Shown piece by piece: positions 45,601 to 46,059 of a stretch of DNA of 64,000 bases; the first letter of the stretch is position 1, and every line of letters begins with the position of its first letter. The notes under the pieces were generated by a model. It did not search any database. It worked only from the letters and a program-made list of their open reading frames with translations, and was not told the DNA's origin. Position numbers and translations under genes: made by a program. Source of the stretch: Octopus sinensis (Eukaryota). The stretch is taken from contig NW_021836293.1 of the NCBI RefSeq assembly GCF_006345805.1, positions 1 through 64,000 of the forward strand, written 5' to 3'.

Positions 45601-45655
45601 TGGATGGTTTTAATTGTTTTGGTGATTTGTTTATTTGATTGCTTTTTAATGGCAT
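42608..45655 (-). CDS. LINE ORF2: APE endonuclease plus reverse transcriptase (probable 1-bp frameshift near 42776; native stop likely 42639-42641)
   Basis: [98 protein letters not shown]. Confidence 0.95.
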
Positions 45656-46059
45656 GTGTAGTGGGGTAATAGTGGTGGATGGCGGTGGGTGATAGCTCGG
45701 ATGTTTTTTTCCAGTTCTTTTGCTAGATTCATTATAGCTAAAAAAGAGGAAGAAGAGGTGGTTTCCTGTCTAGGGAACCGCAGGTGACTGTGGCCGCGGC
45801 TATTTTTATGTGAGTGATTATCTTTAAATGTCCGACGAGTCCCCGGGAGATGGGTAAAGGGGCAATCCCTGTGCAAGCACAATCTGTCTCGCTGGGAATA
45901 GCGGCAGATTTGGGGATTCCTTGTTTGAGATATTGGTGGTTGTGGTGATGTTGTATTATGGTGGTTGCTGTTGTAGTTTGTGGGGATAGAGCGTTTTGTT
46001 CCAGGTAAATGGGTGAATTTGCAGTCTCTATCAGTGCACAGTCTATGGCGAAGAGAATA
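45646..46059 (-). CDS. LINE ORF1 C-terminal part with tandem CCCH zinc fingers (5' truncated)
   Basis: [21 protein letters not shown] and [23 protein letters not shown] (C-x8-C-x4-C-x3-H); overlaps the ORF2 start by 10 nt. Confidence 0.8.

Follow-up and report, generated by a model that had tools for sequence, protein, structure and literature searches.

The R2 retrotransposon has an N-terminal Myb domain on its reverse transcriptase (RT) chain, which helps to locate the target, and in HIV-1 the gag-pol -1 frameshifting takes place on a U_UUU_UUA heptamer. Concerning LINEs with an AP endonuclease (APE), microsatellite targeting has been described for Waldo (ACAY), Mino (AC), Kibi (TC) and Koshi (TTC), and also for Dong (TAA), in the accessible text of PMC3812793. 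As for CR1 elements, CR1_2 comprises mosquito elements only in the portion of PMC4120745 at hand, recent activity of CR1 families is on record for Octopus vulgaris (PMC13282606, accessible text), and an octopus RT, O.sinensis_33_LINE, is classed as Jockey/CR1 in the available part of PMC10294476.

The CR1 copy in the window

The window, i.e. the whole stretch of 64,000 nt of Octopus sinensis DNA that was analysed, contains a young octopus CR1 LINE in a 5'-truncated copy, the features of which are listed in Table 1. The first-pass annotation had recognised here, at 45646-46059, a LINE ORF1 with tandem CCCH zinc fingers, and its reading frame, both fingers, the LPGT(K/R)R motif and the helix were all confirmed. 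By alignment, the first finger of the window is a copy of the third finger of the sub-clade described below. The C-x8-C-x4-C-x3-H motif has two matches in the six frames of the window, one being the ORF1 finger and the other lying in a low-complexity stretch. The final ~50 codons of ORF2 have lost the reading frame.

The truncated copy and its flanks also have a near-identical duplicate (G000:C8888; L019, L187), corresponding to a haplotig or a segmental duplication. Adjoining the LINE, a SINE-like element with a tandemly repeated head of 159 bp and a tail of (GAT)n, bordered by TA repeats on both sides, occupies positions 46766-47390, and a short decayed piece of another CR1-type ORF2 (47% identity) is present at 9769-9921.

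Table 1. Layout of the truncated CR1 copy and its flanks in the window.
Feature	Position	Strand	Remarks
CR1 LINE copy, 5'-truncated	~42552-46060	-	TA-type microsatellites on both sides
5' flank, TA/TATG-type microsatellite	46060..46758	.	likely pre-existing target
Truncation junction	46060/46061		ATAT microhomology
ORF1, 3' portion only	45646..46059	-	137 codons + stop
First CCCH finger + LPGTKR	45991..46059	-	finger 46009-46059; first Cys missing
Second CCCH finger (C-x8-C-x4-C-x3-H) + LPGTRR	45832..45906	-	complete; finger 45850-45906, LPGTRR 45832-45849
U_UUU_UUA heptamer, ORF1 frame	45739..45745	-	predicted -1 frameshift site
ORF1 C-terminal helix	45691..45744	-	position conserved across the sub-clade
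ORF2-frame AUG, 10-nt overlap with ORF1 stop	45646..45655	-	ATG 45655-45653, TAA 45648-45646
ORF2 frame	42608..45769	-	AP endonuclease, first strand at 45583; RT ~43292-44023; FADD 43514-43525
3' end	42552..42640	-	two predicted hairpins + short tandem tail
3' flank, TA-type microsatellite	42325..42552	.	type and orientation as in 5' flank

Full-length copies and sister families

The search of the octopus genome itself provided 603 first-look candidates; the 40 that were scored all have an identity of 98-100%. Twenty-eight of 30 loci continue upstream and supply the Cys of the first finger, the remaining two being the window and its duplicate; the loss of this Cys by truncation, as proposed in the first-pass annotation, is thereby borne out, and the CCCH region, which had been required beforehand to recur upstream of other ORF2 copies, does so in these 28 loci. 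The full copies are ~4.75 kb long, with a 5' UTR of ~470 nt, and their complete ORF1 of 408 aa retains the fingers: a Myb/SANT-like domain (aa 9-73) is followed by a polyQ tract, an S/T/P linker, the two CCCH fingers and the short helix. Domain, polyQ and S/T/P linker are all missing from the 5'-truncated window copy, which is why the Myb/SANT-like domain, the odder part of ORF1, had been missed from the window. ORF1 is intact in 4 of the 20 long loci and ORF2 in one, some of the breaks possibly being assembly errors. The DNA stretch was found in 20 sequencing runs (10 studies, 5 coded organisms), contigs on a full copy being counted as presence only, and no RNA holder was among those listed.

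The families were given letters for this analysis (A, B, C, D, E, F, G and H), the window copy belonging to family A. Its sister family B shares the layout, with 50% identity in ORF1 and 77% in ORF2. The ORF1 consists of PHD + three fingers in family E, of Myb + polyQ + extra fingers + a triple array in family F, of Myb + two copies of finger 3 in families A and B, and of Myb + finger 1 alone in families D, G and H. Judged by this domain composition, the families of the octopus genome represent intermediate steps between PHD + three CCCH and Myb + two fingers. In the ORF1 of family E (L266, L268-L270), a variable 17-aa tandem repeat was also observed between the fingers and the helix, in 1 to ~11 copies.

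RT placement and the usual ORF1 of the sub-clade

In ORF2, Pfam identified RVT_1 (E 1.6e-30) and Exo_endo_phos_2 (E 9e-14), i.e. an RT and an AP endonuclease. The RT of the window is 40-43% identical to bird CR1 RTs, and the short tandem 3' tail, the 3' hairpin and the 5' truncation, which are CR1 traits, are all present. By eye, the RT segment of O.sinensis_33_LINE printed in PMC10294476 equals the window ORF2 residue for residue. The placement and catalogue check suggested in the first-pass annotation thus assigns the window LINE to the CR1 clade, with an RT that was already catalogued there, and its ORF1 type was not found described in the accessible text of the sources consulted. An identity with the 'unknown I clade' reported in PMC10294476 was rejected, the matching clusters being classed as CR1 in the part of that source at hand.

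Five of 80 metagenome loci, fetched by ORF2 alignment, carry the finger ending in H-x-x-G-T-x-R, as the last of their array. All five, together with the octopus families and one Argonauta protein, form one long-branched RT clade, separate from bird CR1, with a support of 100/99 in a careful 48-row tree; 18 loci were dropped from the quick RT tree (stops or short cover), and CR1-group rows were the only outgroups in the trees.

A profile of the finger region matched 2,464 protein clusters at E<=0.001 and 1,668 at 1e-10. Among the best 150 of these 2,464 clusters, 116 contain an 8-4-3 finger; 90 of the 95 proteins of at least 380 aa match the PHD pattern, the other five being PHD-like by eye, and none matches the Myb pattern. 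Pfam, run on 85 of the best 150, gave three sub-cut-off PHD matches, three Tudor/MBT matches and none for Myb. These PHD and finger pattern counts in the top profile matches thus indicate that PHD-like + three CCCH + helix is the usual ORF1 of the sub-clade, and by alignment the octopus fingers are traced to this sub-clade-wide PHD-like + 3xCCCH ORF1. No name, and likewise no taxon, was attached to any of the 10 clusters looked up among the best 150 matches. Neither the whole octopus ORF1 nor its residues 262-408 gave a match in homologue searches, and the Atlas search produced no usable one; clusters of relatives bear partial zf-CCCH labels in the ESM Atlas.

Variants of this layout were also seen: P0145, P0204 and P0205 have a Tudor/MBT-like domain ahead of the PHD-like finger, i.e. 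a third N-terminal reader, and one relative (L101:3-2750) has an ORF1 of ~1,000 aa with two PHD fingers ahead of the CCCH array.

Exchange of PHD for a Myb/SANT-like domain

The N-terminal 90 aa of ORF1 match PF13837 with 27.5 bits (cut-off 27), and the full protein with 23.9 bits. Families C and D score 18-19, family B 26.8 and an older copy of family A 27.4, and the copies of family F, with 32-33 bits, are above the cut-off; by score, the Myb call is borderline. The domain is modelled as a confident helix-turn-helix (pLDDT 83.5). In the fold search with this model, Z is level for Myb, GT-1 and homeodomains (6.2-6.4), which does not tell Myb from homeodomain, with Z <=6.4 throughout and Z 5.6 for the R2 structure 8ibw. 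Foldseek found no match to this model among solved structures at E<=0.001. Folding of the whole ORF1 without alignment (pLDDT 40.6) was set aside. Both the Myb domain (dN/dS 0.10-0.22, where dS is not saturated) and the CCCH fingers (dN/dS 0.09-0.10, where dS is estimable) are under purifying selection.

The Myb families occupy two places in the RT tree as well as in the endonuclease tree, and their union in a single clade was rejected by the AU test (p 1.5e-6 for RT, p 0.002 for the endonuclease), the groups being defined by ORF1 type and the tests run after the trees had been inspected. The Myb domains of both lineages group together at 91/90, a value below the starred threshold and obtained with five host-like domains as outgroup. 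On these trees, PHD gave way to Myb in two separate RT/endonuclease lineages. The simplest reading would be a single Myb capture, after which the module passed from one lineage to the other; alternatively, there may have been two captures from related donors. Five host-like PF13837 loci (L331-L335; 54-74 bits) are possible relatives of a donor, none of them close.

Insertion into TA-type microsatellites

Junctions were scored for a TA-type repeat at <=20 nt, the background being 3-5% for the window and 17% for flanks near copies. Of the 55 distinct 5' junctions of family A, 36 have such a repeat, as do 41 of its 45 3' junctions, counts in which two loci were left out on the 5' side (their first match being another copy at the locus edge), internal breaks are misses and one 3' row duplicates the window. 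The corresponding values are 13/14 for the 3' ends of family B, 6/7 (by eye) for family F and 18/25 for the 3' ends of family D, yet only 8/21 for the 5' junctions of the latter. As for the PHD family E, a TA-type repeat was found at 4/30 3' ends and 2/28 5' junctions (Fisher vs. family A, p 5e-12 and 3e-7), the contrast being between two Myb lineages and one PHD family. The repeat type of one flank also agrees with that of the other flank of the copy (n=31; Pearson r 0.80 with permutation p 1e-4; Spearman 0.37) and, by this concordance, the element splits a pre-existing repeat: both junctions lie in one such repeat, above background, as in microsatellite-targeting elements.

Because the endonucleases of families D, G and H group with the side holding the non-targeting PHD family E, and not with A, B and F, the TA preference tracks the Myb module rather than the endonuclease lineage. 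The Myb domain, predicted to be DNA-binding and to be carried by an ORF1-ORF2 fusion, may therefore contribute to target choice, a proposition that we regard as credible, if somewhat short of probable. The competing explanation, that the endonuclease (or an easy nicking of TA repeats) sets a preference arisen twice, is less likely. The Myb/SANT-like domain would then have another job, e.g. chromatin or protein contact, as the replaced PHD probably had likewise. It is in keeping with this explanation that SANT-type domains often bind histones, not DNA, and that a SINE ends at TA too (5/12 3' ends, these being local SINE ends only, in loci chosen for Myb-family copies). According to the accessible text of PMC3812793, it is also accepted that microsatellite targeting by APE-type elements is determined mainly by endonuclease cleavage. 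An endonuclease-set preference would nevertheless be expected to follow the endonuclease lineage, which it does not in D, G and H, and family E indicates that TA repeats are no general sink for the sub-clade.

Copies of different TA-targeting families were also seen nested side by side in one microsatellite (L084, L087, L099, L210, L052, L041).

The ORF1/ORF2 junction

ORF2, which lies in the -1 frame, shares some 120-400 nt with ORF1 (124 nt in the window, where it is open from 45769). At the Phe-Leu codons with which the helix starts, 11/14 elements have U_UUU_UUA, two (families G and H) U_UUU_UUG and one (family D) A_AAU_UUU. A canonical X_XXY_YYZ heptamer, in frame and with the -1 frame open, is thus present in 12 of the 14, as in a frameshift cassette with a conserved heptamer. 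A -1-frame stop precedes it by 1-8 codons in 13/14 elements, the heptamer of the window sitting 8 codons past the opening of the -1 frame, and the register is kept in 27 of 29 readable family-A loci. Inside ORF2, U_UUU_UUA encodes just 2/71 Phe-Leu pairs. Seven of the 14 elements lack an AUG ahead of the endonuclease, and one is present in families A, F, G, H and two metagenome elements; the overlapping AUG of family A is absent in its sister family B.

Given U_UUU_UUA in 11/14 elements and no AUG before the endonuclease in half of them, a -1 frameshift fusion is likely. As the helix begins at the heptamer, such a fusion would be devoid of it: most ribosomes would thus yield ORF1p with its C-terminal helix and a few would slip, giving an ORF1-ORF2 fusion without helix, which we consider probable. 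Concerning a conserved stimulator 3' of the heptamer, none was found as a local hairpin (z between -2.6 and +1.5 over the first 50 nt), and pairing of the frameshift region with the 3' end was not above controls in 7/7 elements. The residues preceding the conserved Phe-Leu avoid K/Q/E/M (1/116 vs. 63/338), an observation given no weight because a helix N-cap preference explains it as well as the need for a T-ending codon does.

The 10-nt overlap with an ORF2 start, pointed out in the first-pass annotation, is real in the sequence, but its AUG is not conserved, whereas the -1 slippery heptamer is, and the frame opens well upstream of it; it is therefore probably not the route to ORF2. Translation by termination-reinitiation at this AUG or at a non-AUG codon, the heptamer merely reflecting the conserved Phe-Leu and no fusion being made, is on balance unlikely. 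The AUG/stop overlap does exist in family A, SART1 has an overlapping stop-start, L1 ORF2 initiation is AUG-independent (PMC3894237, PMC5009743, accessible text), and no stimulator structure was found. Against this, Phe-Leu needs no such codons, as ORF2 itself illustrates, the -1 frame opens just ahead of the heptamer and stays open throughout the overlap of 100-400 nt, and half of the elements have no AUG before the endonuclease.

No description of -1 frameshifting in CR1 was found in the literature searched, nor is there any in the accessible text of PMC5009743 and PMC3894237. Slippery heptamers are also present in the -1 overlap of CR1 loci with other ORF1 types (L115, L122, L145, L147, L154, L152, L161), so that frameshifting may be general in CR1; one bird-type CR1 has U_UUA_AAC in its -1 overlap.

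CCCH fingers: novelty and putative role

The four Cys-Cys-Cys-His ligands are invariant across 8 aligned fingers, and a profile of 116 non-octopus fingers, themselves collected with a profile that included octopus rows, matches both fingers of the full ORF1 (E 1e-14 and 5e-13). The zf-CCCH profile check put forward in the first-pass annotation is supported to that extent only, since every Pfam CCCH cut-off is missed: the best E is 0.007 (Nab2-like) and the best score 17 bits vs. a cut-off of 27. The spacing is 8-4-3, vs. C-x8-C-x5-C-x3-H in TTP-type zf-CCCH (PF00642), and the fingers are of neither the TTP nor the Nab2 type. The finger profile of the sub-clade matches the Muscleblind fingers (MBNL1, E 1e-5), this match spanning the first two fingers of the sub-clade array, not the third type retained in the window family. 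NCBIfam brought no addition to the domain calls.

The unusual ORF1 architecture proposed from the window holds in so far as the Jockey-superfamily ORF1 survey does not contain it (PMC4120745, accessible text), but the fingers are common to a large CR1 sub-clade and the Myb/SANT-like domain had gone unseen. As a whole, this ORF1 type, Myb/SANT-like + CCCH within the known CR1 clade, is real, selected and apparently undescribed. In their main texts, the 448-element survey (PMC4120745), the vertebrate CR1 survey (PMC13343379) and the L1 survey (PMC5203782) mention neither CCCH nor Myb, no Myb-CCCH ORF1 is described in the accessible text of the octopus and gastropod papers PMC9115989, PMC11203168, PMC12220107 and PMC13282606, and the literature searched yielded no LINE ORF1 with CCCH or Myb. 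It is hence improbable that the architecture is already catalogued, in Repbase, Dfam or other papers, with its annotation alone being new: the RT does figure in a published set (PMC10294476), CR1 families are recently active in O. vulgaris (PMC13282606) and the ESM Atlas clusters of relatives have partial zf-CCCH labels, but the surveys cited above and the literature searched contain no such LINE ORF1, within the limits of the texts available, and none of the ten clusters looked up among the best profile matches is named.

Among Pfam matches to E 10, the 408-aa ORF1 has no Tnp22, PHD or esterase domain and no RRM, CCHC knuckle or other RNA-binding module, and the fingers, together with the basic linker, are therefore the sole candidates for RNP formation. 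The CCCH fingers likely bind the element's RNA, and their putative role in RNP assembly is plausible. That they would act as a specific regulator and not in general RNA packaging, e.g. by tuning frameshifting or by binding poly(A) or 3' hairpins, is quite unlikely. In favour of such a regulator, active families differ in the type of their fingers and have between 1 and 5 of them, which one would not expect of a core chaperone, no RNA stimulator was found downstream of the heptamer, and Nab2 is the closest Pfam model; against it, ORF1 offers no RNA-binding module besides the fingers and the basic linker.

Proposed mechanism and implications

We lean, with some reserve, towards an overall explanation in which a young CR1 LINE carries Myb and two CCCH fingers in its ORF1, the fingers bind RNA, ORF2 is expressed as a -1 fusion and Myb steers insertion to TA repeats. 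This explanation builds on what the analysis directly establishes, namely the architecture, purifying selection, finger descent, the Myb-for-PHD exchange, the conserved heptamer and the insertion bias. ORF1p would be made in excess, would bind the element's RNA via its fingers and would assemble via its helix, while a minority of ribosomes would slip to produce a Myb-fingers-endonuclease-RT chain; the Myb domain on this fusion would favour TA-rich repeats, where target-primed reverse transcription would begin.

A wider proposal is more tentative, and we would not yet call it probable: a large CR1 sub-clade would have a CCCH ORF1, -1 fused to ORF2, in which the reader at the N-terminus can be exchanged (PHD, Tudor/MBT + PHD or Myb/SANT), and the octopus Myb/SANT module, captured once and passed between two distant lineages, would have redirected both to TA, i.e. 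would be a portable target-site determinant.

The questions touched by these observations are the function of ORF1 in non-L1 LINEs, the translation of ORF2 and the choice of target in APE-type elements. One genome holds young sister families with PHD and no TA bias vs. Myb and a strong TA bias, making ORF1-based targeting directly testable by domain swap. With the sub-clade comes a further type of ORF1, of which there are thousands of members without a name, and, if the role of Myb is true, a module with which retrotransposon insertion could be programmed; the repeat landscape of octopus genomes may likewise be explained in part by TA-targeting LINEs.

Comparison with known systems

Like retroviral gag-pol, the octopus element combines the same heptamer and a -1 overlap with a (here predicted) fusion of a structural ORF to an enzyme ORF, but no conserved downstream hairpin was found in it. 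With R2 it shares a Myb-type domain and an RT on one chain, as the predicted fusion would allow; R2 differs by its single ORF, restriction-like endonuclease and 28S rDNA target, vs. two ORFs and an APE endonuclease in the octopus element. Host tandem CCCH proteins (Muscleblind, CPSF30, Nab2, TTP, ZAP) have Cys3His fingers too, Muscleblind being matched as given above, whereas the octopus fingers are set apart by their 8-4-3 spacing, their H-x-x-G-T-x-R tail, their scores below the Pfam cut-offs and the distance of 32 residues from one finger to the other.

ORF1 types I-V (Khazina and Weichenrieder, extended in PMC4120745) are likewise modular, and the sub-clade ancestor is PHD-like as are types III and V (CR1_2), but none has CCCH fingers or Myb/SANT in the accessible text of that source. 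CR1, and O.sinensis_33_LINE in particular, has the same APE + RT, short tandem 3' tail and 5' truncation; in the available part of PMC10294476, the RT alone is classed, ORF1, junction and target bias being undescribed. Finally, Waldo, Mino, Kibi, Koshi and Dong have a comparably strong bias into a pre-existing microsatellite, but in the accessible text of PMC3812793 none is (TA)n-targeting or a CR1 element and their targeting is ascribed to the endonuclease, whereas the octopus bias tracks an ORF1 domain.
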